Shown here: one piece after another, positions 21,765 to 64,000 of the stretch
Numbering within the stretch: position 1 is the first letter of the stretch
Layout: every line of letters starts with the position of its first letter
NCBI GenBank assembly: GCA_026770705.1
Contig: JANJGN010000034.1
Coordinates: forward strand, 4,836,001 to 4,900,000
DNA length: 64,000 nt
Source of the DNA: Isurus oxyrinchus
Taxonomy: Eukaryota
Direction of reading: 5' to 3'
Notes under the pieces: generated by a model
Seen by the model: only the letters and a program-made list of their open reading frames with translations
What the model was told of the DNA's origin: nothing
The model's database searches: none
Position numbers and translations under genes: made by a program

Positions 21765-22620
21765 ATGAACACACATATATGCCAATCAGGAGGAGGAGTG
21801 TTACAAATCGGCACTCCAACCTTTAGACCATTCAAAGATTTCATGACTGATCCTTTTGTAAATCAACTCCATATTCGTAACTACCACAAAAGAACTTTCA
21901 GCCCTCCCACCTGATTATCAATAATGCGTTTAAGTATTTCTTAACCTATCCAAATGTTGTGCCTTCACCGTTTTTTGATGAAGAGTTGCAAAGCTTCAAG
22001 ACTTCTGACTATGAGAGAGAAAAGGATCAATGCCTTGACCCTACCTTAATTTTGGGAAAACGTATATTTATAACCGTGAGCCTTAGATTTAGATTCTCCC
22101 TCAAGTAGAAACTTCCTTTCCACAGCCACAATCTCAGGAACCTTCAGGATCTTAGATGCTTTAGTCAAGTCGCCACTTACTCTTCTAAATCCCATCAGGT
22201 ACAAAGCTAGCTTTGCACGCTGTCTTCATAAGACAATCCTCCCATTCCAGGCATCAGTCCAGTAAACCTTCAATAAATGTCATCAACCACATTTATGTCC
22301 TTCTTTTCTAAAGAGATCACGACTGTACACAGTAAACCAGATGTGTCCTCACTAACACTCTGAATTACTGAAGTATGATATCTCTATTTTTGTAGTCAAA
22401 TGCGCTCGAAATAAAGGATACTGTTCTGCTAGCTTAACAGGTTGTTTGCTGCTCTTGCATGCTCACCTTTTATTATACATGTACTCGGACATGAAGACCA
22501 TTTGCAAATCAGAGCAATACATATCGTTCACGATTTAGATAATATATTTTTGCCTTCATGCAAATATGGCGAATTTACATTTTGCTACGTTGCCCAGATT
22601 TTCCCTATTCAATTAACCTT
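21765..22620 (-). mobile_element. CR1 LINE 3' fragment
   Basis: Reverse-complement tail (caggaggaggagtgttacaaatcggcactccaacc) plus ORF2 3' sequence similar to 8070-9230. Confidence 0.7.
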
Positions 22621-23456
22621 CATGGAATATTGAAAATCGTATATCAGCCAAATGTCATTGACTACTAGGCTGAGATTCCTTTCATTAACTTGGATATAAA
22701 CATATCAAAACTATTTATATCACAGGTGGGTGATCACCAGTTGCTAAGCTAACATGATAGTCAATAATGAAAACAAATTGCATAAATTTTAAGCCTCGGG
22801 AAAGTGTGTATTTTTATCTTATGTTTGGATCAGAGTGATTGCAACCTTGGACGACTACTGTTCTTCCTTGGAGTTCATCCTGCCACTCGCGGCATGTTAG
22901 AAAATTACATGTGAGGCACGTTGCAATCAGGTGGTTGGATAGTTTTAGCATACAGGAAAGCTGTGAAGTTATTTAACAATGGGAAAGGTTTGAAGCATTG
23001 AATGTCCTACTTTGGTTTATACATCCCATTATATTGAGGAGAAATGGAAAAATACGGTCCATCTTAAAAAATCGTCAAATATTCAAATAATTACTTTTAC
23101 AATTAAAGCATAATGACAGCCTTGAACATCACTGTATTACCCTACTAAATATTTATTGGAATTTTATCATCCAAATTAGCAGTTCATTCAAACATTCTCC
23201 ATTCTAAGTACAGTTTTGAGATGTTCAGGGGCGTTGAAAAGCGAAACCATTTAGTTAATTTATTGTGTGTATGGAAAGTGTAAGTCCTACAACAATACCT
23301 ATTGTACGTGCTTTCAAACGTAACAATCACATGTTAATAGAGCGTTGGCCATTATCCTGTTCATAATATCCTTTAAACATGACAAATTACTGTTAATTTA
23401 TTACCAACTTTTTTATATGGAGATAATGATTTTTTAAATCTTCTTTGTTTTTGCAG

Positions 23457-23567
23457 CTGTTATGTTAGCCATTGAGGTTGCAAGGAGGCCCAGTAGCGAA
23501 AGCACTGTAATTCCAGATCCCGACGAAAAAGAATGTAGAGGAACACGAATTGAAGGAGCTCTGAAAG
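23457..23567 (+). CDS. 111-nt phase-1 exon (xVMLAIEVARRPSSESTVIPDPDEKECRGTRIEGALK)
   Basis: ttctttgtttttgcAG acceptor and AAG/gtaaga donor; open frame overlapping ORF 23462-23770; ATG at 23462 could be a start codon. Confidence 0.75.
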
Positions 23568-32500: not shown

Positions 32501-35500
32501 TCTTTTAACAAGAGCTCATTTAACATTCTGCTTTGTACTCTATATTGTCTTTTTTGCACGTTTGTACATTTTCTGTTTCCTCCTTGGAAGACTACGTCCC
32601 AGTCGGCATTGTGGTATCTTGGTTAGGAGGAAAGCTCAGTTATACAGATGCGGATGAAAAAGGTTATCTGATTTTCATTCTCGGTTTTACCCTTTATTTT
32701 GCACTACTGTTGTCAAAATCGCCTAAGACGTCATTGAATACATAATTTGTCATTTCTTCCCCCTTTTTGATAGTGATCGAGAAGTTGATCCAACTCCAAG
32801 AAGTTGCAGGTGATACAAAACAATTTATTGTGTTCGTTTTCTTTGAATGCAAAACCAGGTACGGTTAAAATATATAATGGGACGGTGAGGGCAAATTAAG
32901 ATGCAAGGGGAAAAGAACTCGTTACGGGAGAGCCATGCTTTAAACATATAGAATGCAGAAGAGCTCCTCATAGAGGTTATTTCACAGACGTTTGAAAGTG
33001 TCTGAAATTAGACAATTAGTAAGACAAATAATTACTACAAAAATCTCTTCATGAAGCGTTGTAAAACCCAATAGTACTCGAGGACTGCAGAGGAGCTTAT
33101 ATAATACCTTTACATATAAAAAAAGGTATAACATATCTCCAGGGAATAAGAGAGCACTGAGCTTAACATAAGTAAGTTAAAAAATAGTGGAATACTTTCA
33201 CAAGGGTACGGGAAAAGTTACTTCTACAATGCAAAATATAATAATGAATGAACACCATGGGAAATCAAGGGAAAATCTTCCTTGACCAAGCATATTCAGC
33301 TTTGGACGAAACACTGAAAGAAAGTGTGCAATGTTTATTCAACAGATCTGATTTATATGGATATTCAAAGGGACTTTGTTAAGTTGCAATGCGCCCTAAT
33401 TATGATTATGTTAAGATAACTAGATTTTAGTTGTGAAGTGGCAGAGTTGGTTGCTACCTTTTTTTCAAAATAAAAAGAAGAAAACGGAACTGAAGAGTAC
33501 CTTCTGAGCATGATAAGGTTGTGATGCGGTGTTGCTCAAGGGTCAGTGCTGAATCTACTTATTTTCAAAATGTACATTAAAGATTTGGACTTTGTAAATA
33601 ACAACAAAATATCCACATTAGCGAACCTCAGCCAAATTGAGGGTCACTGTTTACTGACCAAAACATAAATTAATTATTGAATGGGAGCAATGATTTTTTG
33701 AAATTGATAAGTTAGTTTGGGAATAATCCTGCTGCAAAATCAAATATGAGCTAAGAGAAAAATATTGTGGTTGCTGAAAATCTGAAGCAAAAACAAAAAA
33801 TATTGGAAAAACTCAACAAGTCTAAGAGCATCTGCATAGAGGAAACAGTTAACGTTTTGAGTCCAGATGACACTTCATCAGATCTAAGACGTCTAGAAAT
33901 GTGGTGGATTATAAGCTGCTTGAAGGAGGTGGGACAGGTAGAGTTGGATAGAGGGACACTGATAAGTGGAGGCAAAAAAGGGACTGCTAAAAATGTCATA
34001 GGCAAAAGTTCAAAAGGTGCTGATGGTACTGATATTAGCTGCGTAATGTGCTAATGATGATATTAAGGGAAGAAAACAGGACGAGCATGTTACAGATAGC
34101 ACCATTGTGGATTGGGTGTGGGGAAGCAATCGAAATCGGCTAAAAGGTAGAGATAAAGCACAGGACAGAATTACATTTATTAATAATGAAAATAGGTGGG
34201 GAAAGAAAAATACGTTAAAGTATCCATACAAAATATAAATTGTTAGAAAAAGGGAGATTGGAAAGGATTCGGGGATGGGGGAGAGAGTTGTTGAGCTCAA
34301 TATTAAATCTGGAAGGCAGTAAGGGGCGTATTCAGAAGATTAGATACTGTTCCTGCAGTTTGCGTTAAGCTTCACTGGAACATTGCAGCAGGTCAAAGAT
34401 GGACATGTGGACATGAGAGCAGGATGGTATGATGAAATGGCAAGTGACAGGGAGGTCTGGGTATTGCTTGCTGACAGAACGAAAGTGTTCCAAAAATACA
34501 TAACTCCATCTTGCTTGGCCTCTCAAATATAGAGGAGACCGCATTGGGAGCAGCGAATGCTGTATATCAAATTGAGGGAAGTGGAAATGAATTGCTGCTT
34601 CACTTGGAAGGAGTGTTTAGGCCCTTGGACAGTGAAGAGGGGGGGCGAGTAAAGGGGCAGGTGTTTTACCTTCTGCTGTTACATGGGAAGGTTCATTGGA
34701 ATGAGGATGAACTTTTAGGCGGTGATGGACGAGAGGATCAGGGTATCCCAGAGGCAACAATCCTCGCAGAGTGCCGCCAGGGGGGATCAATTGACGATGC
34801 ATTTCTTGGTTTATCTGCTGGAGTTACCAGAAATTTCAGAGGATGATCCTTTGAATGTGGAGGCTGGTGGGGTGATAATTGAAGACAAGGAGAACACTAT
34901 ATATGTTCTGTTAGGGAGAATAAGTTGTAAGGGAGGATGCGTGGGAGATGTGCTGGGCACAGTTGAGCACTCTGTCAACCAGCGTGATTATATGAGCTAT
35001 CATGTTGTGTTTGAAAGAATAGGAAGCACAGTTTGTGCCTGGAATATGCAAGTCTAGGTGTGCTAAAGGAACCAATCGGACTTTGAAACAAATTACACCA
35101 ATTATTAAATGATGTTTGAAAGGATTGTATTCTAAAGGACTGGCACAGATGCAAATAATATTTAGAAGGACGATGTTAATTGTTCCATCATGTGATGTGG
35201 ATCACCCATGCAATGACAAACGTTGTTTCCCTTCAATAATTACCCTTCAGGATGTTGTGGTAAGCTGGCTTTTTGAACTGCCATAACACATTGGATGCTG
35301 CTGTACACCTACTGCTGTTGTCCATTGAATTCCAGGAGCTTCATTCCCACCGCAGTGAACCAATGGCATTATAGCTCCAAGTTTAGTTTTTTTTAATGGG
35401 AATTTTCAAGAAGAGGTCTTTCTTGATTAAGCCTGTTGACGTTGTCAGTATAGGTGCTGGAGGCGTCTAGGTTCGCAGATTCCTTCAAACGAGACCTGTT

Positions 35501-38500
35501 GATTTGCTGGTATGTAGTGCGCACTGCTGCTCTTGTTCATTGGTCGTGTTGTATGTGGATGTCTAATGTGGAGCAAGTAGGCTTCTTTGTTTAGTGTACT
35601 GCTGTGTGTTGCGTGTGGGTTATTTGGTGCCAACCAGTTCCAAGCAAGAGGAGAGTATTCCATTACAGTCTTACATAGTTTCCTGTGGATTGTTGATTGG
35701 CGATTTGCATCAGGAACTGTCTTAAATGGTTCTGGTTTTTGAGACCTGCTCTAAAAACGGCAGTTCTTGCATTGTTATTTTAGCTCACTTTCTGCTAAAT
35801 CTTACATGGTACTCTTCAGGAGGTTGATAGTGAAGTGATGCGTGATGATAATATCATTGATGGTGAATTGGTGAGAGTAGGATTATCTCTTAATGGAAAA
35901 GTCCATTTCCTGGAAGTTGCATGGTACGAAATGTGTTTGTTCCATAAATGCTGCATTAAGCTTGCTGCATATTCGCACTGAATGCTTTTTTACCTTAATA
36001 TTTGAGATCAGTAGTGAACTATGCACAATCCTCAGCGGACATCCCTTTTTCTGCCATTCTGATGGAAGGGGGCTCATTGATAAATGAGCTAATAGCTGTC
36101 TTGAAAGCGGACACCATCCTGATCAACTGCTAAAGTATGCCTTGAAATTGCATTGAATGGTCTTGGAAAACTTCACCCAGCTGCATTTTGCTGGTGCGAC
36201 GCTCAAGCAACTAAAGCGCCCCCACCGCCTCCTGCTCCAACACACACAGACACACAGTGACCTATACTCTTTTCAAATATGTGCCTTGATTCCACATTCA
36301 GCCAAATTCTACACTGACATCAGAGAATGTACCCTTACTGTGAACTGCTGATTTCAACTCTTTATCCATGTTTAAACCAAAGGCTTCTTCACAAGGCGTT
36401 TAATAAGGTGCCTCAGCAAAGATTATTGTGGAATGCAAAAGTTCATGTTGCACCCGGTAATGTAGAGGCAGTAATAGAAGATTGGCAGCTAACAGGAAAG
36501 AGAGGGTAGACATAGATTGATCAGTGTTCATGTTTGGCATGATGTGATGCGTGGTATTTCAAAGGGATCAGTGCTAGTTCTTAACTCTTTACGATTTATA
36601 CAATTTTGAATTAAAGCACCGATGGCATGGTTGCTACATTTGCTGCCGACACAAAGATACGTGGGAAAGTAAGTCCTTAAAAGGGCATAAGGTGGCTACC
36701 AAATGACATAAATAAGTGAGTTGAGTAATCAAGGATTTTGCAAATATAGAACATTGTGCAAAAATGTTTGGTTTTCGATTTTGGCAGGACGAATGAAAAA
36801 TAAGCATATTTTCTAAATGGTGAGACATTATATAGTGGTGAGATACACGAGGGTATTTGTTTTAGTAGGTCAATCAAAAACAGTTAATATGTGCACACAA
36901 CAGTGATTAGCAAAGCTCATATAACGTTATCAATTATTGTAATCGAAATCTAATAGAAAAGTTTTTTGTTATGCTTCAGTTATACAGAGCATTGGCGAGG
37001 CCATGCCAATAGTACGGTGTACATTATTGATCTTCTTATTTCTGAAAATTTGTGAATTTATTGAAAAAGGTTCAGACAAGGTCGCCCAGATTTAATACCT
37101 GGAATAACCGGGTTCTCTTATGTATAACGGCTAAACAGGCTCGGCTTGCATCCACTGGAGATTGGAAGAGTACGAGGGACCTGCTGGAAACATTTAAGAT
37201 CCCGACTGGAATTTACATTGGGATTTTAGAATGTGTTTCCTATCTTATGGAATAATCAATAACTAGGGACACTGTTTAAAAATAAGGGTTATCTATTTAC
37301 GACTGAAATGACGATTATTTATTCTCAGGCAGGTTTGCGAAACAGTGTAATTCTCCTCCTCAAACTACTATTATCGTTACAGTAGAGGTAGATAAACTCT
37401 TGATAAGCAAAGGTTGGAATGATTATTGGGGGTAGGCAGGGATAAGAAGTTCGGGTAATAGTTAGATTAGCCACCATGTTATTGAATAGCAGAGCAGTCT
37501 CGAAGGGCCGTGTGCCCTATTTCTGCTAATCAAATGTTTGCATGTTAGCAAACATGTTGGGGGAGGAGTGTACTTTACCAAAAACAACTGCACATCTGTG
37601 AGATGTTCGTTGTTGTTGTGTAAATGCCTTTCCTAGCATGGACAACCTGAAAGATCCTCATTAATTACTGTAAGTCGCCGATGAAGTTATAATTGGCAAC
37701 ACTGAATTTAAGCTGTATTAGTGGATGGCACAGACTGGGGATGTTTATGCATTTTTTTGTCCAAATGCCAGTGTTTTTGAAATAATTTGTGTCCGGACTA
37801 GCCCTGGAACCAACTCCTCAGCCCTATTGCGTGAATGTTGTCTAGGCACCCAACTATTTCAGTCGCCAGCTCCTTGAACTTTTTTTTTCTCTTTATCACC
37901 TGGAGTGGATTGAAATGGCCGAAGATTGGCAGCTGCGATGCTGGATAGCTCAGAATTACGCCCATATTAATCATGGGCTCGGCACTTCTGCCTGAAGATG
38001 GACGCAAATTATTCAGAACTGTCAATGCTCTAATGCAAAGCACTCCTCCATCTATTAGGTTGCGAATATTGATGGAGCCCCGCTCCTCATATTCTTTTTT
38101 TTTTTAATTTTCAAAAACATTACAAAACTGGTTGTGACATGATTGATGAGTTTTCACTTCGTCGGGGAACCTTTTATTCCTGTCTAACTCAAGCTGCGTA
38201 CATCGTTTGAAATACAATGAGTATTGTACACTAGCTTTAGCAAATTTAAACCTCACTTTTTGTCATGGCTGGAGCTCCTCAAAGTATATCATGGCACATT
38301 AATTATTGAACCAGAGTATGCGCCCTTGGCTAGATTGTCAGTGCTGAGTGAAGAATCGCTGGTCCATTAAAGTGCGGCCTCTAGTGGAATGCTATTCTGT
38401 TACTGATGCTACATAGAGACTGGATGTCATGCTTTGAACTTCTGGTCCTGTTTGAAAGCTGACATGCATTCACAAACAAAACAGGAAATTATCAACAGAG

Positions 38501-41500
38501 CATCCCATTCTCTCTTGAAAAGTAATGCAGATGGATGACCAGACATGGGCCTTTAAAATGTCGAACTTGGAAGCTTGGCACTAAAATCACGATTTCCCCT
38601 TTTGTGAGAGACTACAACTCGGGGAAGCAGTTAAAAAAATATATATATATTGCAATAAGGATGACTTGCTCCGCTTGGAAGACCAAGAGCCTTTGGAGAT
38701 CTGTTTTACAGAGAGCAGTGCAGGCGCATTCAATAAATGTTCCGGAAAAACAAGGAAGCCAAAGTTTACCGGGAAAAGAAATACATTTTGGATTTAAGGC
38801 CACAATCCGATTATCCATGCTCTCAGAGAATAACAGGGTGTGATGTGCCGCGGGGGCAGCACGTGATTGGTGTGTCTTGGTGGCGGTGCAGGTGGAGGAG
38901 TGGTGGGGAGAGTGTGGAAATGAAGCGGAGTGGCCAATTGGCCTAACTGCTCTCCAATCCTTTTTTTTTTCATTTCGTGTATTAGAAAGGGATCGCTTGA
39001 ATATGCTGAGATAGTATTTCCTCCTGGAGGAGAATGCAAACCTAGAAATTATCAAAATGCTATAATTACAAAAAAAAACTCAACATGCAATTTTGAAGAA
39101 CTACCCTCTCCAAAGTATTGTGAAAGTTTGGAAGTTGGAAACGAACATTGGTTGAAAGGAGTAGTGCAGTTGGATTAAGACACGCATATGGGGTTAGCAA
39201 AGCTAAGGCCGCCATAATAGAGTCAGGAGGGGAGGAGTCTCAAGTGGATCGTAAACATAAACTCTTTGAGCCAAATAACGAGTTTCTGTGTCGTATTTCC
39301 TATTTAATTACATGAAGTTAAATAAGGCATTTCAAATTTTAACTCGGTGCCAATTGCATGTTCATATATTTTTGAAGTAAAAAAAACAACATATTTTGAA
39401 TTCTATGGTTTGAATTGTTTCTGCATCAATTGCAGAAAATTGCTTGGTGGCATTATTTTAACTGCATGTCTAGCAGAGTGTACTGCCGGCAGCATCATGG
39501 ATTACAGCTAAGAATCAATTGAACTGTCTCCAGGTATAGAGCTCAAATATACCGTGGAAGTGTTTCCTTTGTCTTGCTCACTTGTAGTTTAGTGTGTATC
39601 ATTTTGGCACCCATATTGAAACTTACACGGGAAGGCGGCTGATATTTTTCAGTGTGTGATGCCATAAAATTTGGAGCAATATAAACAGGGAAAATATGTT
39701 AAATACATCAGCTTTCTTACTCCAACCCTGCTATGTGTGCTTGCTATACTAATGATTATGGTTAAGGCTAAATGAATATTATATTGTAACTGCTGGTCAA
39801 ATTTTTCCGATTGTGCGACAGACCAAAACAATAGGCCATGAATCTGAGAGAGTAACGAATTAACCCTGTATTAATTTCAGCAGAAACTATGCTTCCGAAA
39901 TTTAGTTGGAACGTTTCCATTTCTACCATAATGAATTTTAGACTAAATTAGATAAGCACGCATTGCAGACAGCGGCGAGTACTTTGCAGTGTGAGATGGC
40001 AAAACAGCAATGTATCCAATCGCCGTCCCATTTAAGATAGAGTCGGGTCCAATCTGATCGTTCCACTAAAATTATCAAAACATATTACTTTTCAATGACA
40101 GAGTGGATTGTCACCCAGATCCAAGCCAAATAGGAATAAATTGGAACACAAATGCTAATAATATTAACATATTCGCAGAACAGATGTAAAAAAATCACCA
40201 CAATAACTGTCATGTTCTTTTTAAGTGAATAAAACAAACTTAGAAAGATGTGAGTAAAATTGAGGTACAATCAATGCGTTCGGAAACGAGGCAGGCAATT
40301 TATGGACCACAATGTCCAAGTAAACATTTTAAGGAGGTAAAAACACTATTCATGTTTAATTTGTTTGTTACAAATATTCTACCGCCATAGGTTTTCGAGT
40401 GTATTGAGGCATTAGTGGAGAGATAAACTGTAAGCATGTAGCGACTGTGACCTTTCATCCGTTCTGATGCAAGTTTCCATAGCTGAAATGTTCATTCTGT
40501 TTGTCTCTCCAAAGGTGTTTTCAGACTTACTGATCATTCCTGGCAACTTTTCATTGTATTTCACATCTTCAGTATGCACTGTATTTTGATTTTGTAAAGA
40601 GGATTTCCTTTTGTCTGCTTTGAATGGCAGAGGAAAAAAAAGAGTATATATAAAAAAAACGTTCTATTCTGATGGAACCAATAAAAACATTTTGTCAGCA
40701 CAATGTAACATTCATTCCAAACCCAAGCACAGAAGGACAAGGGAAAACCCCAAATAACGAAAGGCAAATTGGATCTGGAAAGAAATCTCAAAGTGCATGT
40801 ACACCATCTGTATCTCAACAGAGATATACGTCTGTGCACGGTCTGCATTCAGAAAATATTTATTTATTTCAATATACAAAATAGTGTCCTGGAACAAATT
40901 CAGCAAAATGTGGCGCCTGCGTACCGAGCTCAGAACAGCAAATCATTGAAAACCTTGATGCAGAACAACCCCCACCCAGATGTTGCACGAGTAACAGTTC
41001 TTGCAAAAACAAAACATATCACCCAGAAAAATCCTATGCTCATCGAATGTAAGACCCTGCCAGATCAGTACAATTGTATTTCAACTTTGGGCGATATTGG
41101 AGTTTGGGCCCATTAAATGCTGTAATCAACTTTATTTTCCACCTAATTAAATGGAAATTAAATTCTTGTGGGTTCTTCAAGAGAAACAACCGAACAGCGC
41201 AAATAAGCAACGTCTGTTCAGGGCAACTTTGTGCTCATACAATGTAAAATATAGCACAACCTCTTCTATACTCTGAACAAAAATAATTTTGGACAACACA
41301 TGAAGCAATTTATTTATCACGTAAATAGAAATTTGATCAATGCATGCAACGATTTAGAAAAGACATGCAAAGCGACTGTGCTTCAACTTTCATTTAAAAT
41401 TGTACAGCTTGTTTTATTATCATTTATAGAAAGAACAATTAAGCGGAAAGATGAAGGTAGGATCTTTAGGTTTCTCTAGTTAATTTTGTTTTTTGGAGAT

Positions 41501-53500: not shown

Positions 53501-56500
53501 AACTTATAAGCAATAGCCTGAACACTGATGTACCGTGTGGGTACCGCTGGAGCCAAAACGCTTCCAGCCTCCCTATAGCCTTTGTCGAAACAGGGACAAA
53601 AGAGCTGAACAGCGTTGCTGAGGTAAGTTAGACTGTTTTTGATATCAAGGGAACAGTTGACCAATCATGGCATCAAGTCGTCCCAGGAAGCTGAGCTCAA
53701 AGTGGATTAACGAAGTAAGCAAGGGGGAAAAAATCTTCCAGTTGCTGCTCTACATACAAGAAAAAAATCGCTGTGGTCGTGGGAACTCAATTATACCAGC
53801 CCCATTATCCCAGCATCAGCAGTTCATCAGGGTAGCAGCTATGATAAATCATCTTGAGCTGCTTCATCACGATTTTAACACAACAAAACAGTGCCTCATA
53901 TTATACCAGATTCTTCAGGTACTTAAATTTAAAGATTTCAGTCTATGCAAACATGCAGCAAGAGCTGGGCAACAGATTGAAAGTTATATTTCCGCCACTC
54001 AGTGCCAGGTACTGATAATGGAAACATCCAATCTTGAAATCCAAGATCTTACCTTTGCTGAATCCCTTCATATGAACATATTTGGATTAAAACAAACTGC
54101 AACTTTGATTCGAACATTTGATTAAATGCTGTACTTTTGAGAATAGTTCAGAGGCTGGGAAACCTGAATGAGAAGCAAAGCTTTTGAGTACTCGAATACA
54201 CTCTGCTATACGCATTGAGTCAAGTCCGGAGCGTGAATGATTATACTCCGTTTGCCTCGATGAACTCAGCTCCAACAACAATTAAGAAGTGTGATACCAC
54301 TCTGGGAAAGGTAACTCTCTTGAAAATGTACTCCAGTGGCAGGATTATATATTCCATTCCACCACCCCCTGCACCGAATGGAAGGAAAATGCAACATTTC
54401 CAAAGTTTAGGGCACGGACGCAAATCCCTCTTCGAGAGCACATTGCAAAAGTGTGGCCTATAGCACTTTGAAAGACAGGGGAAGGCGAATTCTGCTATCA
54501 AAAACGATGACAAGTGCCCCTTTAAATCACAACATATCCGTATTTTACTTTCAGTTACTTGTGAAAGTACATTCACCATGGTCGGAATTCTTAAATATTT
54601 AACCTAAGTACCCAAACACATCCGAAAATAGCGAAGCCTGTGGAAAAGTCGGTTAGCATTTACAGACGTTTTTGTTTATCTCTCACTCGACGCACATGGA
54701 CACTGGACGAGCTTAACGAATCATTATTTTTCCCTACACGTTGAATGAGCTGCTTTTATGATCCATTGCAGAAAACACTTTGAATCCTACCCCCAAAGCA
54801 TTGGTCAGAATGGAGTCCAGAGGATTGATCCAGCATCGAAAGTCAATAATGAACAAGTTGGTATTATGGGTGATTTTGAGCGTAAGTTTCTAGTGGTGGT
54901 TTACCTACGAACACCTACGCCCCAAAGCCACCATCCCGAGCCTCATCCCCTTCTTTTTATGGCGGAACAGTTAAGTGGGTTGATGTTGAATTTATTCCAC
55001 ATTCACCAAATAATGCGTAGACGCCAGAAGTTGCTGTGAATTACGTTTTGCAATACCAATGCTCACTAGCATACTCGCCCTTTGAGTGCATCAAACTTGC
55101 AATTCACTTTTTAAAACTTCACTTAGGTGCTGCTTCCCAACTTCTGGATAATAGAATCATTAGCTTATTCCATCAATCTTGGCAAATCTGCCTTACAATT
55201 GATTTTTTTTTTTCCGTCAATTGTTCGGAGTTCTAAATATGAATAGGTAAGTATTTGCCGTTTTAGTCGCAGGTAGGATCTTGGATGCTCTGTGCATTCC
55301 ACAAAAATTGCAAACCACATAACAGAGCTGGAAAATAGCACATTAAAGACATTCATGTCCAATATTTGAAATTCAGACTTGAAAGCATTGGGTGGAGTAA
55401 AACCACCTCTTCATATGTACACAGATTGAGACTAGACAGCAAATTGTAAATGGGGAATAAGCAGTTACGCAAAAAGATACGCTGGAGAATTCTGGAAGAA
55501 ATCTATTGTTACTTTGTTGTTCCTACTAATATTAGTTGTACTCCAAATTGCATGCCAGGTATTTCAAAATGGTTTTTCATATGCTGTAATAGCGTTCTGC
55601 AAGTCAGGGACACATTACTAAAACGGGACGGGAATGATTAAACTGATTTTATGTACGTTCACTAGCATAGACAACAATTGATGAATGATTAATTAACGGT
55701 CATGCAGGTTGTGATTAGTGATAACGTTTGAAATCATGAGGGTACCTAGATAGCTACAGCAGAGTGCAGCATGTTATCCTAAATTCAAACAGGAGGGATT
55801 TCATTTTTTTTTACTAACTTTTTAGCAAAGCCATTTTGGCAGTTATGTACCTTCTTGCCAGTGTGGCTTTCGAAATCAGTTTAAGCTATCTTTGGAAAGT
55901 CATTTGTCTTAGCCGTTGCAAATTTGGTCCTTCCCCTGAGTCAAGCAATGGTGTTTTCCAACATTCTGAAAGGGACATCACGGTGCACCCCAAGGGAATG
56001 CTGTACTGTTAAAATTCCCAACCTGTTGAGGACAAAAACACCCTACATCTCCATCTGCCCTGTCAGGGTGCCGCACATGATTCCACGGCACTGCTTCAAC
56101 GTACACAAGAACATTGTACTTCCCCTCCCTCCCAGCAAACCATAAATCATGGCCGGACCTACATGCATGACGCAAAAACATCCCTCCAAAACCAAGTTGT
56201 AATCTTTTTAATTTTGATGATTGCGCATTATTCTTCACAGAATGACATTTTTTCACCGATCATCATATTACCCAGTGCAGTTCGAAATTCAAATTGCCCA
56301 CAAAGCAATTTTGGAATGTGTTGACAGCTGTCCTTTAAATTAATATATTTTTTCTCCACTTCGCCCTTTGTAGAACTGTTCCAGTACGATGCAGAGACGC
56401 GTGAGTTGCTTCATTATTTATTTCAACAGAAAACATAGTAATATTATAATACAGGCAACATCAGACATTAAGTAATCTAGCACTTGCTCCGGCATTCAGT

Positions 56501-59500
56501 GTGCTTACAACTATTGCCTTACTTCAGCTCGATGTTTTCACATAATTTACGTGGAAGTGATGTGTCCTCACTTTTTTCAGCCACAGCTTTATCCAATTGC
56601 TGAGCACCCACAATTATAAAACAGGAAAAATATTACGCTTTGTACATAAAATTGGTTCATTTAGTCCCAAATGCGTTCAGTGCTTGTCTTGCGATTACTT
56701 TCTTTTAGTTTAGACTCCCGAAGCACTACATTACAACCATGTTATCAACATACCGTCTGCCAAACTTTCTCAGAATTCGATATTATTCCAGGAGTTCAGA
56801 TGTCCGTTTTGTAATTCTAAAGTATCCACCTCTATCCCAAACAATCTCTTTTCATATATCGATTCACCATCCTGAGGTACATAACTAACTAATGGTCCTT
56901 GAACCGTCAGGCAAGCACTCGCTTTCTTACTTTTAAAGGCAACACAATTCAAAGTACCCCACGTTTACACTCACCAACCCTTATAATGAAAAGACAATAT
57001 TATTTCTTCTTATGTACCAACATGGTACTAAAAGTCAAACAATCATTTGCTTCCCGACTGTTTCATTGCCATGCTCCCTCCTCGTATAAACGTTTTCGAA
57101 ACACTTGCTATCACACATCTATCACTAGGTTTCTACATTTTTCCTACTACCGATGTCGATCTAACTTTCCTGGATTTGCTGTTTTCGCTCTCCCTTAGAT
57201 ACTCATTTGCAACCTTCCAGTTCCTGTGGACTGTTCTGGAAACTGCGGATGTCTAAATGATTATAAATATTGCATACGCTTTGCCTTCTATCATCTCTAT
57301 AACATCTTGCTGGAACTAAGAAAGCTCTATTAAATTTGTTGCATTCAATTCGATTTGTGCCTCAACACATTTCAATTTTTAGATCGGTTAACGTCCTTCA
57401 TCCGTCTCTCGCATTGCCTCTTGGTTACCTCATATTTTTTCGCAGACACATTAAGACCGCTTTTGTGATTACTGAGGAAAAGAAATGTTGGCTTAGCATA
57501 GTTTCCCTTCATTATTCCCATTTGATTAATGCTTTCTCTTCTCGTTTTCTTTACCCCTATTATACTGTGCCTTTATCTTCACCTGAGGTGCCGTGATAAA
57601 CTACATTGAAACGTTTTATGTTACATACTGACATATTTTTTAATGCGTGTTTGAATCCTTGCTAATTGACATGTGCATTCATTTTTATTTCTCTTTGTGC
57701 ACTTTTTGATCATATGGTTGGTGAATTCTGAAACTCTCCGGAACCTGACAGTTAATATTATTATTGATAACAAGGTTAAACTCTTATGAATTAAATTATG
57801 TTTTAACTTCCCTGGTTTGTAGGAAAATTTACATGAGCTCAGATTGGTACTTTTGGAGATGGCATGAAGGGGAAGCAAAAAAACAAAAAAAAAGCTCAAA
57901 TTTCCAAAAGTATGCAAATGGTCACAGGGGCTAAGGAATCAAGGGAGTTTTCTCAGTAGTGAGAAAACTTGAAACCGAGTGCAAGGGTAATTCGGTGGAT
58001 AAGCAAATCTGGAAATATAGACCTTCTGGACTGCCAACACTTGTGAGAGACTGAGTACACAGACAGTGTGCCTTGCTGATTCTAACCGTACATATAATGC
58101 TTGGAGGTAAATATTTCGTTGGATATGACCCCTCCCTTTCGCTGCATGAATAAAATTGCAGAAATTGTGAACTTGTGTAACGATGTGCTGCTGTATCTGT
58201 GCGGGAATGCTTGCTGTTGCTTGTTATGCAGCTTTTTGGAGTTGAATAATTGGGGTAAACCTGCCTTTAAATTTTTATTTTCATTTGCCAGTTATATGTA
58301 ATTGGCACAGGATTAGTGTAATTTTCAAGTAAAAACTTCAAAAAGCGGAATTGTATTGGTAATTAATTCATTGGGGGTAACTTAGTAATGTTAGCTATTT
58401 CTGTTTTTTGTTCGCTTCGAGGATGGTAGCAGGACTTTCTTCAAATCCATATACTTATATTACATTTGTTTAGCAGCATTTTCCGTTGCTTCAATAAAAA
58501 TAATATATTTTAAGAAATGCTTGGCCTTCTTGAAATAGCCTGGCTCTCCCTAATTACCTCAAACATGTGCAACGCAGTGTCTTATATCCTATCTGAAATA
58601 AGATGTCATAATTGCCGATTTTCAATTTTCTAGCACCTTACGCGCATTTAGGAATGATTTGAAGATTTTTGCAAAGCCTTTCATTGCCTGAACTGAGAAT
58701 TATGTGATCAACCTGACATGGGAAACATTCAGCTGAGGCATCATGTTGTTTAAGCATAGCTCAAATTTCCAGTACATCCTGCCTACCAAATTTAAACAGA
58801 GCGATTACTCATGGGAGCTCCAAATACAAAGATCTGATTTTCTTCACTTTGGTCTGCTGCTTCCCTAGGGAGAACGCATCCGAAGCTTTCCATTTAGCAT
58901 TCTAGCCTTGTCCTGCATCAGTGGACATAAATACAGACTTTTGCAATAATAGGATACCGCTAACATGTTAATGCTGCTTAATATTTATATGTCAGTACAT
59001 AGGCTTCTTTTCTGTTAACCAGCTACTTTAACAGAGTCTCTTTTGCTGCCTTATTTATCATTCTCCCATCCTTGGAACAACTTGGAAAAGCCTTTCAAAT
59101 GCTTCAAGCCAAAGTTTCTCAAGTTACAGATATTTCACTATGTGTAAATTCCTGGGATCTCATTCAGCTCCAGAATATCGTCAACAAATAAGACCTCACT
59201 CGTTCAATGCCATTTTTCACAAAGATGTTTGCTGTTTTAATGCATTAAAAATAATTATTGTTTTCTTATTCACGATGTTTGTTTCCATTAATACAATATC
59301 AGTCTTTTTCCCCCTCGGATTAACAGATTTAGGAAATAATAATCGCCTCTGCAAGTAGCATGTTGACACTTTTATCGAACTGTCCCAGATTTGTTTGCAG
59401 ACCTCTGATAATGTTTAACAAAATGGTGCATCCCGCTAAACGTTGCTGCACCTCAAAGATTCTGCTGCACAATTTCTACTGCCAAAATCCAGCTCTACTA

Positions 59501-62500
59501 GCCAGTAGGTGTCGCTAAATCTTCGAAAAATGCAATTGGCAAAAGGGCTGACATTTTCCTTGGGACAACATAAAAGAATATTTTCTTTCGAAACCGGGTC
59601 AGTGCCTTGAAAACTCCTCTGGAAAGACTTGGAAATGTAAGCCTGTCTCAAACTCGATGTCAAAAATAGACACACCCTGAATTTGTTCGATCTGAGGTGA
59701 GTGCAGGACATCATCATCCCACAAAGTAATTTATCTTGTGGATAATAGCACAGGATTCAGTTTTGTGCTGCTAACATCCGCGTCACAAACCTGTCCCCAT
59801 TCCTCACCCAGCTGAAATTTCTGCCTCTGCTCTGTGTGTGTCATTAGCAACAACGTGCTATGCTCTCTTACAGAAGAAAAGATTAACATAGAACGCAGTG
59901 GTAAATGATTTTCACATTAAGTGTCATTTTAATTTCCTTCTGTCTGAATAGTTCTACCAAATGGCTACGCATCAATATGCATCAATTATCAATTGTGGTG
60001 TTCTCATAAAGGGTGATATGCATGTCTTGGCTCATGCCTGCTGGTACGTGAGGCACAAAGCTATGTATACTTCAATTCTGGAAGTTCCTAATTGATCTGC
60101 AGCAAAAACACTTTGTTTTTTAGTTTATGAAACTGGGGTACAAGAAATACCGCTTTCAGGGTCACCAAGCATTTTGCTTTAGCGGTGGCAGGGGAATTGC
60201 TTCTGAAATACAGTACAAATATGGCTGAGATGTTCATCATTGTACTGCGTGGGAGCAGGCCAATGCTACCCGTTAACGTGGGTCTGGTTAGCTAGACTAG
60301 CCATAATACGGTTCATCTTATTCAATGTAAAGTGCAAACGTTTGTGGTGCCCGTGAAGAAACGTTCCCAGTTGCAATATGGTCTAAATTAGATTGTAAAA
60401 TATACACTCGCAACGTGATGTTAGAAAGGACTATTTCACAAGGGGAAGTACAATGATACATTTTTATATTACTTTGCTTGTTCATGGGATATGGGCGAGG
60501 CTGGGTCTTCTTAAATTATTGCTCATACCCATTTTCCCTTGTGAAACTTGAGGTAAGCTGTATTGTTCAAATGCTGTGGTCTACTTAGTGTAGATGCATA
60601 CACACGCTGGTTAGGCAGCGAGTCCTATGAATTTTAACCAGTGACAGTGAGAGATGGCGATCTATTTCCAAGTCAGTACAGTGAGTGGCTTGGAGAGGAA
60701 CATCCAGGTGGTCGTGTTCCCATGTGTCTGTTGTCCTTGTCTTTATATATGCCATTGGTTTGGATGCCGCTGTCTAAGCAGACTTCATGAATCCCAGTAG
60801 TGCATCTTACAATATATACACTGCTGCCACCGTGCTTCGGAGATGGATTGAGTGAAAGTTTGAATAAGTGGTGCAAAACAGGTGGGCGGCTACATTTCCT
60901 GCATAATGTTGACTGCTTGAAAATTGCATTAAATTTCCAGACGATGCATATTGAAACAATTACAAACATTAAGGATACCATGGGTAAAATGTCCTGATCA
61001 CTTCACACTTTACTATTTTCTGGCAGGAGCACAGTAATCAGATTTTTCAAAGGGCAATTCCGTGTTCCTTCGAAGCTACTCTCCTATTATCAATTTTTAG
61101 GATGGGGATAGGATTTTTTACTGAATACTCCACTATGGATCATTCCATAGCAGTTATACAAACCACACCATGTTTATTCACTTTAATTTCAACTAACAAT
61201 AAATTCGGATGGGGTAAAAAGCAAACATGCAACCAATAATGGACGGGAAATTTTAAAATTGTAGAATGGCCCCCCCAGCAGCACATGGTCCTAAAATTCT
61301 AATTCAGGTCAACATTGAATACAATAGGACATTTTCGTCAACATATATCACCTCTGCCAGAGTTTTCACAACCTCACTGCTCTTTTCATTCTTAGAAATC
61401 AAACGCCTGGAGACAAACATCAACAAGCTCAGTAAGGAATTATGATTACTTCTCAGCATATTAGGCATAGTTACCGTAAGACAGTCTACCAGATAAATTG
61501 ATTGAATGAGTATAATTTGAAAGTGAGCTATCATAGATGTTGCACCAACCAATGCCTAAGAACTTAATTGCAAAGTATTTAAAATTATATATTATTATTG
61601 TTTTTTTTTTACTTTTGGTGCTAACAGCGATTTTCTCAGGCAGAAACATGCCTTTTGCCCCAGTGCAAAAAAGTGAGTCTGCCATTATGGTCGTTTCCGG
61701 GATTCATTTTTAATTATTTCGCTGATTCTGAAGAAATTTGAGAGCGACAATAGGACGTCTGTGTAGTAGTGCTCATTTTGTTTCACGCATGAACCAGATG
61801 GGAAAATTATCTATTTTTGTCTATAGTTCGAGGTTGGAAATTTCAGCTACGCTTATACTGTGGATATCGCTTCATTGTCGGCGTCACTTGGTTACCGACT
61901 GCAAGCTGATATTCAGGTATCATAGGTGTTCTTCTGCATGACCCCGGGCATTACTTACATTGCAATGGCATTCTATCAATATTCGGTATTGAGTTCCAGT
62001 ATTAAAAGCAGTAGCAAAAAAAATGCATTAATATTGAGCCTTCAACGCAATTATGTCTTTCATGGTGCTTAAGACTTTTAGAATACTCCTCCTAGAAGCA
62101 TATTGCGGTGTGACCCCTTGGCATACCAGATTAATTCATAATTCACCTTGCATCCATATTCGGCAGTTCATTGTGAATTTATTGAAGATTGATTTCATAC
62201 TGGGTAAATTGTATTTCCTGAGAATGTACATGTGCAGCAGTGAAGAAGATTTACAGAAGATTGTTCGCTTATGGACAATAATAACTGGAAGGGAATTAAA
62301 GAGATATGGCAAGCAGACATGTCATGGGGCGTTTACAACCCCGTGTCGCCATTGTATTGCATTTCTTGCAATTTAGGCAGCACAGTACAGATGTGTCCAA
62401 CGCTTTATCAGTTGTTCTGTTGATTATGAAACTGGAGGAATAAATATCTGGCAATTATATTGGATTCATGATTGATTGTTGGACAATCCAGGTGTGTTTT

Positions 62501-63346
62501 CGAGGACCCGAAAGATGCCATGATTCTAGAGCATAACTTCACCCACTTAGTACCACAGCTTCACTGCAAGGCCGGATGGGAAATTGTTTAACATATTTAT
62601 CGGAAATCATCTTTCTCTCTCAAATCCAAAAGCTCCATATCAAACTGGAAAAAAAAAATCCACTTTCAAGGCATCCTTTCAATGAATTTGACATAATGAG
62701 CTATCGACTCTATTTTCAACGTGGCTGCGTTGACATGAAGACTGAAAAAAAAGTTTTTTAAAGCGTTGATTAACTGGAAGCCTTTCATTTACCACATAAG
62801 ATGGGATGTCTAGTAAAATTTCCTATACTAACTCCTGACAAGGAAGATGTAACCATAGATAAAAAAAACTGAGGATGCTGGAAATCTGAAACACAACCAG
62901 AATTGCCTGGAAAAACTCAGGAGGTCTGGCAGTTCTGTGGAAGGGTCATGAGGACAAAAAACTCGTTTCTTCTCCGCTGATGCTGCCCGACCTGTTTAGT
63001 TTTTCTGGGTAAAGATGTAACTACATGTCTACTGATCCAGAGACAATGGAACTGGTGGATTTATTTTCCATTTTCAAAGCAGGCAAGTGTTAGCATAAAG
63101 GGTTCACCCGTTTATGACCAATGCTATGGTTTTATCTTCTCAGCTGATGATATTAAAATCAGAGAAGAAAGTAAGTATTCAGCCGAAAACCTAATTGTTC
63201 AAGAATACGTGTATATTTTGAAATAATTATCAGACTGTTTTTTTTTTTACATTTTAACAAGGAAGAGCCCTAATTATTGTTTCTTTTTCATTTAATATAT
63301 TTTTTTTCTTTTCCATCAGAACTGAAGAAATGTCTGGACGTGCTCA
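23457..63346 (+). CDS. Partial multi-exon gene of symmetric phase-1 microexons encoding a coiled-coil-like repeat protein (unidentified; architecture resembles butyrophilin/BG tails or CD23 stalk)
   Basis: At least 14 AG/GT-bounded exons, all multiples of 3 and all open in phase 1. Spliced microexons read VIEKLIQLQEVA-ERTIKRKDE-ELETLRQLNDEK-DDIIGQKET-VIRELNTLVERI-EAKIAKRDI-DVSTCDKMSN-EFNDYNDSACE-EKTLLEKEM-ELFQYDAET-QEKINIERS-ADDIKIREE-KLKKCLDVL. The gene probably continues past the window end. Confidence 0.8.
24300..24800 (-). mobile_element. Second LINE family 3' fragment, decayed
   Basis: gactagcatttattgtccgtc...gaatggtgtgtga matches the reverse complement of the 5480-6040 family tail. Confidence 0.55.
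25190..29330 (-). mobile_element. Near full-length decayed CR1 LINE (ORF1, endonuclease, RT, 3' tail)
   Basis: RT in ORF 26315-26701 (IFQSSLEIGEVPEDW...PVSLTSVVSKLVE...QHGFGKRRSCLTSLLE...YMDFSKAF); endonuclease in 27759-27950 (AVYYR...IIVGNFIYP); ORF1 Cys motif CSSCRIWE near 29260-29285. Confidence 0.93.
28320..28352. repeat. Poly-C tract
   Basis: Run of more than 20 C within the CR1 copy. Confidence 0.9.
29540..30150 (-). mobile_element. Second LINE family RT fragment
   Basis: Reverse complement gagacttattgcctttgacatgaaactagtggctgactggtgtgacatcaagg is a decayed ALDIKAAFDRVWHQG motif. Confidence 0.6.
30550..31560. repeat. GC/G-rich unclassified interspersed repeat
   Basis: Abrupt switch to G-rich, CpG-containing sequence with G-runs (31365-31452); no recognisable protein. 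Confidence 0.4.
32410..32424 (+). CDS. Candidate 15-nt phase-1 microexon (ERRHK)
   Basis: ttgttcttgctcttgcAG acceptor and AAC/gtaatg donor; alternative upstream acceptor at 32357. Confidence 0.4.
32591..32662 (+). CDS. Candidate 72-nt phase-1 exon (xYVPVGIVVSWLGGKLSYTDADEK)
   Basis: ttctgtttcctccttggaAG acceptor; weak AAG/gttatc donor; alternative donor gttagg after 32621. Confidence 0.4.
32774..32809 (+). CDS. Microexon A1, 36 nt (VIEKLIQLQEVA)
   Basis: tttcttccccctttttgatAG / CAG gtgata; aligns with A2 and A3. Confidence 0.75.
32880..33700 (+). mobile_element. Decayed CR1 RT fragment
   Basis: tatatggatattcaaagggactttgttaag (YMDIQRDFVK) and ggtgttgctcaagggtcagtgctg (GVAQGSVL). Confidence 0.7.
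33765..34980 (-). mobile_element. Penelope-like retroelement 3' part with decayed GIY-YIG endonuclease
   Basis: - strand 34609-34505 reads FQVKQQFISTSLNLIYSIRCSQCGLLYI*EAKQ; further 3' RKLQEQYLIF*IRPLLPSRFNIELNN; terminal repeat at 33765-33885. Confidence 0.85.
35240..36120 (-). mobile_element. Second LINE family fragment, decayed
   Basis: ORF 35445-35663 MEYSPLAWNWLAPNN matches the EFSPLA...AAPTT segment of the 5480-6040 copy. Confidence 0.65.
36380..37545 (+). mobile_element. CR1 LINE RT to 3' end
   Basis: cacaaggcgtttaataaggtgcctcagcaaagatta (KAFNKVPQQRL); tail gaatagcagagcagtctcgaagggccgtgtgccctatttctgct. Confidence 0.85.
37790..38430 (-). mobile_element. Decayed LINE fragment (second family)
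   Basis: tggagtggattgaaatggccgaagattggcagctgcgatgctgg... resembles internal sequence of the second LINE family. Confidence 0.45.
38990..39300 (+). mobile_element. Decayed CR1 3' end
   Basis: Ends gagccaaataacgagtttctgtgtcgtatttcctat, similar to the CR1 tail at about 5230-5270. Confidence 0.5.
41430..41456 (+). CDS. Microexon B1, 27 nt (ERTIKRKDE)
   Basis: ttgttttattatcatttatAG / AAG gtagga. Confidence 0.8.
41610..41915 (-). mobile_element. tRNA-derived SINE with a tail resembling the second LINE family
   Basis: ttccctaaaggacattagtgaattagatggg core; reverse-complement head atagtagtattatcgtcgcaagcctaataatcc...cccgggttccaaactc with A/B-box-like motifs. Confidence 0.65.
44210..44405. mobile_element. 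Palindromic Penelope-derived short element (hairpin)
   Basis: Arms aaacaaaaacagaattacctggcaaaactcagcaggtctggcagcatcggcg (44244-44295) and cgccgatgctgccagacctgcagagtttttccaggtaattccgtttttgttt (44354-44405) are near-perfect reverse complements. Confidence 0.85.
44962..45030. repeat. (TTA)n microsatellite
   Basis: gttattattagtattgttattattattattattattagttacattataattattattcttattatc. Confidence 0.85.
45641..45676 (+). CDS. Microexon A2, 36 nt (ELETLRQLNDEK)
   Basis: ttttccgaattatattcacAG / AAG gtgtga. Confidence 0.75.
46314..46340 (+). CDS. Microexon B2, 27 nt (DDIIGQKET)
   Basis: tttatttaccgctgcAG / CAG gtatat. Confidence 0.8.
46620..46682. repeat. Imperfect (TG)n microsatellite
   Basis: gagtgtgtgtgcgggcgagcgtgtatgtcggtgtgcatgtgtgttggtgtg. 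Confidence 0.6.
48206..48241 (+). CDS. Microexon A3, 36 nt (VIRELNTLVERI)
   Basis: tgtctgttttcttctgccAG / TAG gtgaga. Confidence 0.85.
48590..48855 (+). mobile_element. Second LINE family 3' end
   Basis: ctgacttggaaatatatc-like motif (ctgtcttggaaatatatcaccgttcctt), caccaccaccttctcaaggg...gcaataaatattggctacgccagc. Confidence 0.8.
49592..49618 (+). CDS. Microexon B3, 27 nt (EAKIAKRDI)
   Basis: ctcaaactccttttttAG / TAG gtaaaa. Confidence 0.8.
51159..51188 (+). CDS. Microexon A4, 30 nt (DVSTCDKMSN)
   Basis: ttttgtctgcatttgatttgcAG / ATG gtgagt. Confidence 0.8.
51880..52320 (-). mobile_element. Second LINE family 3' fragment, decayed
   Basis: atttccaagtagggtgagtgtaacttgatggaaacttgca matches the reverse complement of 48600-48670. 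Confidence 0.6.
52422..52454 (+). CDS. Microexon A5, 33 nt (EFNDYNDSACE); read-through gives a possible terminal exon ending at stop 52549
   Basis: gttgattgtgcAG / AAG gtgata (same donor hexamer as A1); frame stays open to TAA at 52547-52549; AATAAA at 52582-52587. Confidence 0.6.
52887..52913 (+). CDS. Microexon B4, 27 nt (EKTLLEKEM)
   Basis: cttctttgtgatctttgctgcAG / TGG gtaagg. Confidence 0.85.
53350..54400 (+). mobile_element. Second LINE family RT fragment
   Basis: gatatcaagggaacagttgaccaatcatggcatcaa (DIKGTVDQSWHQ, decayed DIKAAFDRVWHQ); cagctccaacaacaattaagaag near 54270. Confidence 0.7.
56374..56400 (+). CDS. Microexon A6, 27 nt (ELFQYDAET)
   Basis: tttttctccacttcgccctttgtAG / CGC gtgagt. 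Confidence 0.8.
56690..57420 (-). mobile_element. Highly decayed CR1 fragment
   Basis: Pyrimidine-rich decayed sequence resembling - strand CR1 ORF2 elsewhere in the window. Confidence 0.4.
58530..59400 (-). mobile_element. Highly decayed CR1 3' fragment
   Basis: agcatagctcaaatttccagtacatcctgcc, ctcatgggagctccaaatacaaagatctg resemble - strand CR1 ORF2. Confidence 0.4.
59874..59900 (+). CDS. Microexon B5, 27 nt (xEKINIERS)
   Basis: gctatgctctcttacAG / GTG gtaaat. Confidence 0.75.
60480..60900 (-). mobile_element. Second LINE family 3' end
   Basis: ttcatgggatatgggcgaggctggg...gtgacagtgagagatggcgatctatttccaagtcag is the reverse complement of the family tail. Confidence 0.75.
62860..63012. mobile_element. 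Palindromic Penelope-derived short element
   Basis: gatgctggaaatctgaaacacaaccagaattgcctggaaaaactcaggaggtctggcag...gatgctgcccgacctgtttagtttttctgggtaa; same family as 44210-44405. Confidence 0.8.
63144..63170 (+). CDS. Microexon B6, 27 nt (ADDIKIREE)
   Basis: ggttttatcttctcAG / AAA gtaagt. Confidence 0.85.
63320..63346 (+). CDS. Microexon A7, 27 nt (KLKKCLDVL)
   Basis: tttttttcttttccatcAG / TCA gtgagt; 149-nt intron after B6. Confidence 0.85.
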
Positions 63347-64000
63347 GTGAGTACTTTTTGCAGAGATATATGTGTTCCCTTTTACATTACTCGAGCACAT
63401 TTTTCCCTGCACATATGTTGTGAATGAAGTAATTAAATGCAAGGCTAGAACATCAGATTATTTTAAATTTAGATATACACAAGGAATTGTGAGCAGATAA
63501 GCTCTTAAAGGCCTTTTGGGGATTCCAACTCACTCTATGTTAGCAAAGCAAAACAATGGATTTCGATATGGCCGACCATTATATGCAAATTTACAATGAG
63601 AACTTTTAACAATATAGCGAGCAAAAAACCCTTAGAGACTGCTGTGGAGCAATATAATCTAAGCTTTTAGAGAACAGCACATAACGCTATATTAAAGAAG
63701 CTGAGCAACACTTTTGTCAAAGAGCATTTAAAGAGAATTTAATAGGATGGATAACAGGCAGAAATACAAAGACCACAAACATGATAACATCAGCGCTTGA
63801 GGGCAAAAGAATTGAAGACATTCAACAATTGGGCAGTGAGATAAGGATTATTATGGAGCCAGAACTGGATGAGTGAACGTAACAGTGACAGAAAGTGGGT
63901 CATCATTTTGTTTCAGCATAAGATTTTGGCACATAAAATTTGTGGAATATTAACATTTAACGGTGAATTATTTGCCCCTGCTGACCTGCTGGTCTGCCTA

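Follow-up and report, generated by a model that had tools for sequence, protein, structure and literature searches.

We examined if a row of very short exons in the genome of the shark Isurus oxyrinchus is real, and to what kind of gene it would belong. The stretch analysed (called the window here; 64,000 nt) covers positions 4836001-4900000 of contig JANJGN010000034.1 (C34) within the 4.98-Gb assembly. A first-pass annotation, made from the letters of the window alone, had claimed 13 exons of 36, 27, 36, 27, 36, 27, 30, 33, 27, 27, 27, 27 and 27 nt (387 nt together) and had read them as the modular coiled coil of a lineage-specific, possibly immune, shark receptor. The reading we arrive at, with a probability of roughly 0.7, is that the window holds the 5' end of a real gene under selection, gene 2 of an old cartilaginous-fish family. 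Its members would begin with a short exon for the N terminus, continue with many symmetric phase-1 exons of 21, 27 or 36 nt in a row, and close with one B30.2 (PRY-SPRY) exon.

A microexon array on one strand

Candidate exons were scored in 464 kb of continuous sequence around the window. The splice matrices were generic frequencies, without training on Isurus oxyrinchus; the microexon scorer was trained on the upstream paralog (gene 1, see below) only, and scores of at least 7 were called strong. The scan retains open exons only, so broken exons are invisible to it. As had been claimed, each of the 13 exons has AG before it and GT after it, is a multiple of 3 in length and is open in phase 1; eleven of them scored as strong, whereas the 30-nt exon is borderline and the 33-nt exon is probably false (Table 1). 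The claimed limits of the array did not hold, in that two 36-nt exons had been overlooked and the array runs on past the last exon of the original list.

Within window positions 32001-64000 the plus strand has 11 phase-1-open candidates of 27 or 36 nt and the minus strand 0; dinucleotide shuffles (n = 100) gave a mean of 0.38 and a maximum of 3, and 0/100 reached 11. An equal density on the minus strand or in shuffled DNA had been named in advance as the outcome that would speak against the array, and by these counts the array passes. Over the 464 kb, 27-nt candidates numbered 47 on the plus strand versus 3 on the minus strand and 36-nt candidates 27 versus 7, while candidates of other lengths were flat on both strands. 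On the plus strand, phase 1 was open in 45/47 of the 27-nt and 25/27 of the 36-nt candidates, and phase 0 in 21/47 and 6/27, respectively. Between 23 and 264 kb the scorer called 52 exons on the plus strand and 4 on the minus strand. This enrichment by strand, length and phase, together with the shuffles, rules out a chance origin; the microexon array is real.

The exon peptides have the period of a coiled coil, in line with the first-pass annotation. Hydrophobic residues mark positions 1, 4 and 8 of the 36-nt exons (100%, 75% and 69%), position 3 of the 27-nt exons (62%) and position 1 of the 21-nt exons; a 36+27-nt pair encodes 21 residues, or three heptads, and the heptad phase continues across the pair. 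The 3.5-residue periodicity of 14 window exons was reached by 0/500 residue shuffles and by 0/500 shuffles of exon order. By analogy with known coils made of heptad exons, modules of 21 residues (36+27 nt) and of 7 residues (21 nt) would build a long oligomeric rod. Collagen genes also have exons of 27 and 36 nt, in phase 0 and with a Gly-X-Y repeat; a collagen was rejected, with Gly at 2.1% of 522 residues and Gly-X-Y in no frame of 15 exons.

The proposal that any subset of exons could be skipped is correct for the reading frame and fails for the heptad register, which is shifted by exons of 9 or 12 residues: all 12 single-exon skips weakened the 3.5-residue signal (from 2.72 to 1.18-2.60). 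Eight skips of 63-nt pairs gave 1.65-2.93, on average gentler than single skips, yet not neutral. Skipping would thus be expected to break the register except for 36+27 pairs or 21-nt exons. In RefSeq, isoforms (predicted models) of the related proteins described below are set apart by blocks of 9 or 6 residues (Scyliorhinus XP_038672306/08, Narcine XP_069775384-6, Callorhinchus XP_042191566/7), and single skips may therefore be tolerated.

Paralogs on the contig and relatives in other cartilaginous fish

SPRY exons of the family lie on C34 at 2.709 and 3.474 Mb (minus strand) and at 4.817, 6.396 and 7.496 Mb (plus strand), all five of them stop-free, and two more lie on contig C21. The window would hold the 5' end of gene 2 among five genes on C34. 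The terminal SPRY exon of gene 1 precedes the window by 19.5 kb (Pfam SPRY, E 3.4e-14), and the nearest family SPRY exon downstream, which is intact, occupies C34:6395819-6396339, ~1.55 Mb from the 5' end; a downstream B30.2 exon, for which a search had been advised, agrees with the first-pass annotation.

Gene 1 has, from C34:4005537 onward, a 111-nt exon and then counterparts of window exons 32774, 41430, 45641 and 46314 in the same order. These four exons are 72-92% identical between genes 1 and 2, versus 209/720 (29%) in the ungapped flanks, and mismatches between the two genes fall 11/5/15 by codon position (49 codons). Between genes 2 and 3, six 3' microexons, chosen partly for presence in both loci, match at 155/162 nt versus 12974/15034 (86.3%) for intronic positions (p ~8e-5), and the SPRY exons match at 494/521.

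Gene 3 aligns to window -8173..14373 and then straight to window +255193..259400, with 76-83% identity. This jump means that a 241-kb block holding the originally claimed exons is absent from gene 3; the block carries the 111-nt exon and every window microexon, and gene 3 lacks the 111-nt exon as well. The gene 3 side of this gain-or-loss breakpoint is sharp (C34:6455835). Collinearity of genes 2 and 3 is seen at 5.091/6.456, 5.657/6.740 and 6.106/7.190 Mb, and their 3' ends are collinear too. Farther along gene 2, an exon-bearing unit of ~28 kb is repeated in 10 tandem copies, 79-87% identical (C34:5910464-6163128); one gene 3 copy was listed and a constant offset suggests more. Sequence sampled at 5.95 Mb did not align with that from 6.10 Mb. 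The three paralogs span about 0.8, 1.55 and 1.05 Mb, and block-wise gain and loss of exons has occurred between them in the genome. Such in-frame duplication or deletion of blocks would be the main way in which the rod changes its length, with the skipping of exons in second place.

Genes 1 to 3 might instead be transcribed as a single unit that ends in any of three alternative SPRY exons, since they are in tandem on one strand and no strong first coding exon was found after the upstream SPRY. Each unit, however, has a first-exon region of its own, and genes 1 and 2 restart with a 111-nt exon and the same first microexons; we regard a single unit as highly improbable. Gene 1 and a minus-strand family gene start head-to-head within ~30 kb (C34:3.975-4.006 Mb), where a first exon of the minus-strand gene was not recognised. 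At C34:3913815 a 199-residue open reading frame (ORF) resembles, by eye, the membrane-proximal part of a retroviral-type envelope.

Relatives were found among cartilaginous-fish proteins: Leucoraja XP_055510696, Scyliorhinus XP_038668997 and XP_038672308, Callorhinchus XP_042191567 and Narcine XP_069775385. RefSeq calls such proteins E3 ligase TRIM-like (TRIM39-, TRIM58- or TRIM69-like) or zinc-binding protein A33-like, the entries so named being XP_055510696, XP_038668997, XP_038672306-10, XP_042191566-8 and XP_069775384-90. Pfam finds SPRY/PRY alone in 5/5 relatives, with no RING or B-box, and the TRIM-type names appear to stem from SPRY similarity alone. The best match among solved structures was BTN3A1 (E 1.4e-30), with TRIM21 next (7.4e-26); a search of the Atlas returned generic SPRY clusters only, and a two-copy complex prediction for the skate relative scored 0.01 and is uninformative. 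The suspicion of poor annotation was well founded; databases carry the relatives as short, TRIM-named models.

In a tree of 36 B30.2 rows, rooted at the midpoint and omitting most of the ~150 genomic B30.2 exons, the 13 family rows, from shark, ray and chimaera, fall together on one side of a branch with 100/100 support. The family is therefore not confined to one shark lineage, as had been supposed, but occurs in chimaera and batoids also; its age of more than 400 million years rests on a split date given in the abstract of PMC6238376. The six butyrophilin-linked rows, so labelled by nearness to IgC exons, are not one group, and the sampled RING-bearing rows also stand apart from the family. 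On C21, the interval 82-118 Mb has well over 100 B30.2 exons and ~18 butyrophilin-type IgC exons, and may be an extended MHC-like TRIM/BTN region. The two C21 family SPRY exons (89722236 and 91348266) are in this cluster and could link the family to it; the 20 kb 5' of the former has five short exon candidates, weak to moderate.

Table 1. Features of the window, with strand and the scores or matches on which each call rests.
Feature	Position	Strand	Remarks
Probable non-coding first exon, start putative	12397..12606	+	donor conserved in three paralogs
In-window share of the 241-kb block (ends at window +255192)	14374..64000	+	missing in paralog gene 3
111-nt exon (phase 1-1), the first that can be recognised as coding	23457..23567	+	acceptor 5.8, donor 6.6; in-frame ATG near 5' end
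36-nt coil microexon	32774..32809	+	score 15.9; 33/36 nt match paralog exon C34:4010266
27-nt coil microexon	41430..41456	+	score 15.6; 21/27 nt match C34:4013963
36-nt coil microexon	45641..45676	+	score 16.0; 26/36 nt match C34:4020872
27-nt coil microexon	46314..46340	+	score 8.7; 21/27 nt match C34:4021940
36-nt coil microexon	48206..48241	+	score 11.4
27-nt coil microexon	49592..49618	+	score 11.0
30-nt microexon, borderline	51159..51188	+	score 5.8; splice sites good, length atypical
33-nt exon of the first-pass list, probably not real	52422..52454	+	acceptor -3.6, total -1.7
36-nt coil microexon, absent from the first-pass list	52677..52712	+	score 11.1
27-nt coil microexon	52887..52913	+	score 21.4
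27-nt microexon	56374..56400	+	score 11.9
27-nt coil microexon	59874..59900	+	score 15.5
36-nt coil microexon, absent from the first-pass list	61396..61431	+	score 14.5
27-nt coil microexon	63144..63170	+	score 14.9
27-nt coil microexon	63320..63346	+	score 19.4

Introns of gene 2 are mostly kilobases long, apart from pairs of 27-nt exons with introns of just 125-300 nt (window 63144/63320, +101255/101503, +129562/129888 and +172691/172843). Copies of the end of an abundant short interspersed element (SINE) or retroelement lie at window 33758-34986, 44212-44405 and 62858-63012; the copy at 44244-44405 carries inverted arms of 52 nt and is covered very deeply by RNA-like runs. Just past the last window exon is an inverted repeat (window +65290..66723; 629 bp, 98.7% identity, arms ~180 nt apart). 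The exon pair 45641/46314 with its introns had no close DNA copy elsewhere in a genome search.

Extent and start of gene 2, and what weighs against the reading

About 350 kb (~23%) of the 1.55-Mb span of gene 2 was read. The eight interior 10-kb samples (every 150 kb, 5.2-6.25 Mb) all contain plus-strand exons (24 on the plus strand versus 5 on the minus strand), and across the ~350 kb there were 82 candidates on the plus strand versus 9 on the other. The extrapolated count is 306-356 exons, or 108-600 when the bounds are set wide on purpose. The scale of the array had been underestimated roughly 20-fold. Collinearity with genes 1 and 3 points to a linkage of the window exons with the SPRY exon at 6.396 Mb. 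All exons would be spliced into one mRNA ending in that exon and translated from an internal ATG into a cytosolic protein; by analogy, the rod would carry B30.2 ligand-binding heads at its tip and might act as a spacer or scaffold whose sensor end works through avidity. Tentatively, and at somewhat less than even odds, we propose one 1.55-Mb gene of at least about 300 exons of 21-36 nt, near or beyond the 363 of titin, that encodes a coiled coil of ~3,000 residues tipped by B30.2. It would be the longest member of a hitherto undescribed family of chondrichthyan rods that resemble headless butyrophilins, with accordion-like change of length by in-frame block duplication and deletion. At 0.15 nm per coiled-coil residue, ~3,000 residues correspond to roughly 0.4-0.5 micrometre.

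Several points weigh against the reading of one selected gene, and they come from the coil and its conservation, from the extent of the gene and from its 5' end. When all 53 exons were taken, 9/500 order shuffles reached the 3.5-residue signal, and the register is imperfect beyond the first six exons. In a minus-strand control, 1/19 candidates had a best gene 1 match of 72% or more. Of the differing codons in the microexons of genes 1 and 2, 9 were synonymous and 14/23 non-synonymous; the SPRY exons of genes 2 and 3 differ by 10 synonymous and 13 non-synonymous codons. Such common non-synonymous differences, and a scan that sees open exons only, would suit a decaying or rarely expressed relic whose exons are left from an earlier functional gene. 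We consider a relic very unlikely, given that no family SPRY exon on C34 contains a stop, that exons are far better conserved than introns in both paralog comparisons, and that related proteins occur in Logan run assemblies and have RefSeq isoforms.

With regard to extent, no transcript joining any two exons was seen. Four same-species RNA-like contig sets (from at most 2 samples) over window 43400-63399 cover mainly repeats with no exon joint listed, and are uninformative either way. The database relatives are short (129-460 aa); no family member longer than 358 aa was found in database searches (one of which scored 7999 candidates, with proteins of more than 2000 aa outside the search), and among 150 matches listed none longer than 451 aa was assignable to the family. 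Among three mid-gene probes, that at 5.356 Mb had no gene 3 match among the best 40 of 237 candidates. Between 4.817 and 6.396 Mb no family SPRY exon was found among the best 150 of 283 and the best 150 of 455 candidates scored, nor any further copy of the first-exon region in a search blind to gene 1's 60% copy; with these limits a diverged internal gene boundary may have been overlooked. The coding exons could accordingly be real and belong to several genes, or to many short transcripts that start and end internally and skip exons heavily, with coils of a few hundred residues. In keeping with this are the annotated relatives of 202-460 aa, the unread part of the span and the limited sensitivity of the searches, and the survival of gene 3 after the 241-kb loss, where the next scored microexon past the breakpoint has an in-frame ATG. 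On the other side, genes 1, 2 and 3 share a layout of one first-exon region and one SPRY exon, exons of the same phase and strand are in each sample, the periodicity depends upon exon order, and short database models would be expected when gene finders overlook microexons. We judge such a division unlikely, and prefer a single gene 2.

The 5' end of gene 2 was compared among the paralogs. The donor at 12606 is aligned across genes 1, 2 and 3; gene 1 has an in-frame stop right before it and gene 2 an open frame there without an ATG, and the exon ending at this donor is probably non-coding. A DNA-level search gave two copies of the first-exon region, one where gene 2 begins and one where gene 3 begins, and overlooked the 60% copy of gene 1. 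The 111-nt exon and its gene 1 counterpart are identical at 73/111 nt (66%). Its first nine codons are hydrophobic, with coding-like conservation, and are located 5' of gene 1's ATG; the skate model opens with ~17 mostly hydrophobic residues; yet no convincing leader or first coding exon was found from the first-exon donor to the 111-nt exon in genes 1 and 2. The two hydrophobic starts count against translation from the internal ATG, and that of the 111-nt exon may be what is left of a membrane anchor, or may follow an overlooked leader exon. Near -1400, a stretch that looks hydrophobic was rejected as a leader (stops or frameshifts, conservation at background level). A search with the peptide of the 111-nt exon returned itself only, the known paralog being overlooked by the same search, and no RNA dataset was listed as containing the exon's sequence.

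A membrane-anchored or secreted butyrophilin/BG-like protein, with its leader or anchor exon overlooked, would account for the conserved hydrophobic run at the phase-1 start of the 111-nt exon (genes 1 and 2) and for that of the skate model, and the tail architecture is the same as in butyrophilins. Domain scans covered 133 of 170 listed ORFs from the upstream SPRY to 23457 (most of the others lie beyond 23457, and two were scanned on their own) and 113 ORFs near the 5' ends of genes 1 and 0. No Ig, RING, lectin or other domain was above cut-off in either set; one sub-threshold Prok-RING_2 match (E 0.009) was regarded as chance. A genome search with the butyrophilin-type IgC model PF22705 (110/110 candidates scored) gave no IgC exon at C34:2.7-7.5 Mb, its matches clustering on C21 beside most other B30.2 exons; a V-set search (best 150 of 3319 scored) was dominated by antigen-receptor-like clusters. 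No transmembrane (TM) exon was found near the gene starts, where the 111-nt exon offers just a short hydrophobic start and a diverged exon may have been overlooked. Since no Ig, TM, RING, B-box or lectin exon was found in the flanking ORFs, the term receptor, used in the first-pass annotation, is unsupported. With no conserved leader exon found in either gene, and with the 111-nt exon wholly absent from gene 3, we consider a membrane or secreted protein improbable and retain the cytosolic one.

Known systems and meaning for the family

The likeness to chicken BG genes and butyrophilins that had been proposed is borne out by the short phase-1 heptad exons ahead of B30.2. Passages of PMC6790196 and PMC4046983 describe very short heptad exons ahead of B30.2 in butyrophilins, and conventional butyrophilins are reported in cartilaginous fish in a passage of PMC12841164; in the genome studied here, one of the C21 butyrophilins has candidate phase-1 exons of 27 nt that lie after its TM exon and before its B30.2 exon. 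The gene 2 family would share with these the heptad exons and a C-terminal B30.2, but no IgV, IgC or TM exon was found, its B30.2 forms a clade of its own and it lies on another contig; butyrophilins have few coil exons, whereas dozens are seen in gene 2 and probably hundreds exist. Exon design suggests an origin from a butyrophilin tail; the tree does not show it, and that the family is not nested within the sampled butyrophilins is a further point on the contrary side.

Chicken BG genes, according to a passage of PMC4046983, combine 13-36 exons of 21 or 24 nt with one exon for IgV and one for TM, and end in a 3' untranslated region exon; there, tiny exons of variable number encode a long coil with an alternatively spliced tail, and the first description of a BG-derived zipper protein was of a soluble tail regulating actin-myosin interaction. 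Exons of 21 nt occur in our family too (29/41 in the 5' 205 kb of gene 1, and 5 near window +249 to +264 kb in gene 2), but the units of gene 2 are mainly 36+27 nt (27-36 nt in the window), at an extrapolated ~10x the count; a B30.2 would stand at the end, and neither an Ig nor a TM exon was found. TRIM proteins with PRY-SPRY also have a coiled coil followed by B30.2 and, like the product of gene 2, are probably cytosolic; their coil lies within 120 residues of B-box 2 (as stated in a passage of PMC2533329). Membership in TRIM was rejected, there being no RING or B-box in 5/5 relatives or in the flanking ORFs. The family thus resembles a BTN/BG tail, yet judged from its exons would belong to neither butyrophilins, BG nor TRIM on Ig, TM and RING/B-box.

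A CD23-like lectin receptor has a TM part and a terminal C-type lectin domain; for gene 2 no TM exon was found and its family ends in SPRY, the lectin search having covered the flanking ORFs. Schistosome MEG products are, to our knowledge, secreted proteins, and we know of no B30.2 in them. The genes would be unrelated to gene 2 and share with it short exons and long introns, the abstract of 10.1101/2023.06.21.545858 describing a coding region of short exons split by long introns. Human titin, with 363 exons, is credited with the largest number in a passage of PMC3575840; the central exon estimate for gene 2 is of the same order, but extrapolated, and the two are unrelated in sequence and domain type. 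No description of this family was found in the literature searched (mostly open-access journals). The way in which such a coil is built is already known; that literature showed neither a headless form with B30.2, nor the three-heptad module of 36+27 nt, nor this scale. By analogy with the B30.2 of BTN and TRIM proteins and with the BG zipper protein, a role in innate immunity or in the cytoskeleton may be envisaged.

If our reading is true, it adds a B30.2 family more than 400 million years old that has been mislabelled as TRIM ligases and held as short models. It would also add a vertebrate gene made nearly wholly of microexons and near the record in exon count, a test case for the splicing of extended series of 27-36-nt exons across introns of 4-5 kb. 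The paralogs of ~0.8, 1.55 and 1.05 Mb would be a natural length series for what sets the length of a coiled coil, and the family would offer an old point of comparison for butyrophilin and BG tails. Seemingly empty megabase stretches in shark assemblies may be such genes.

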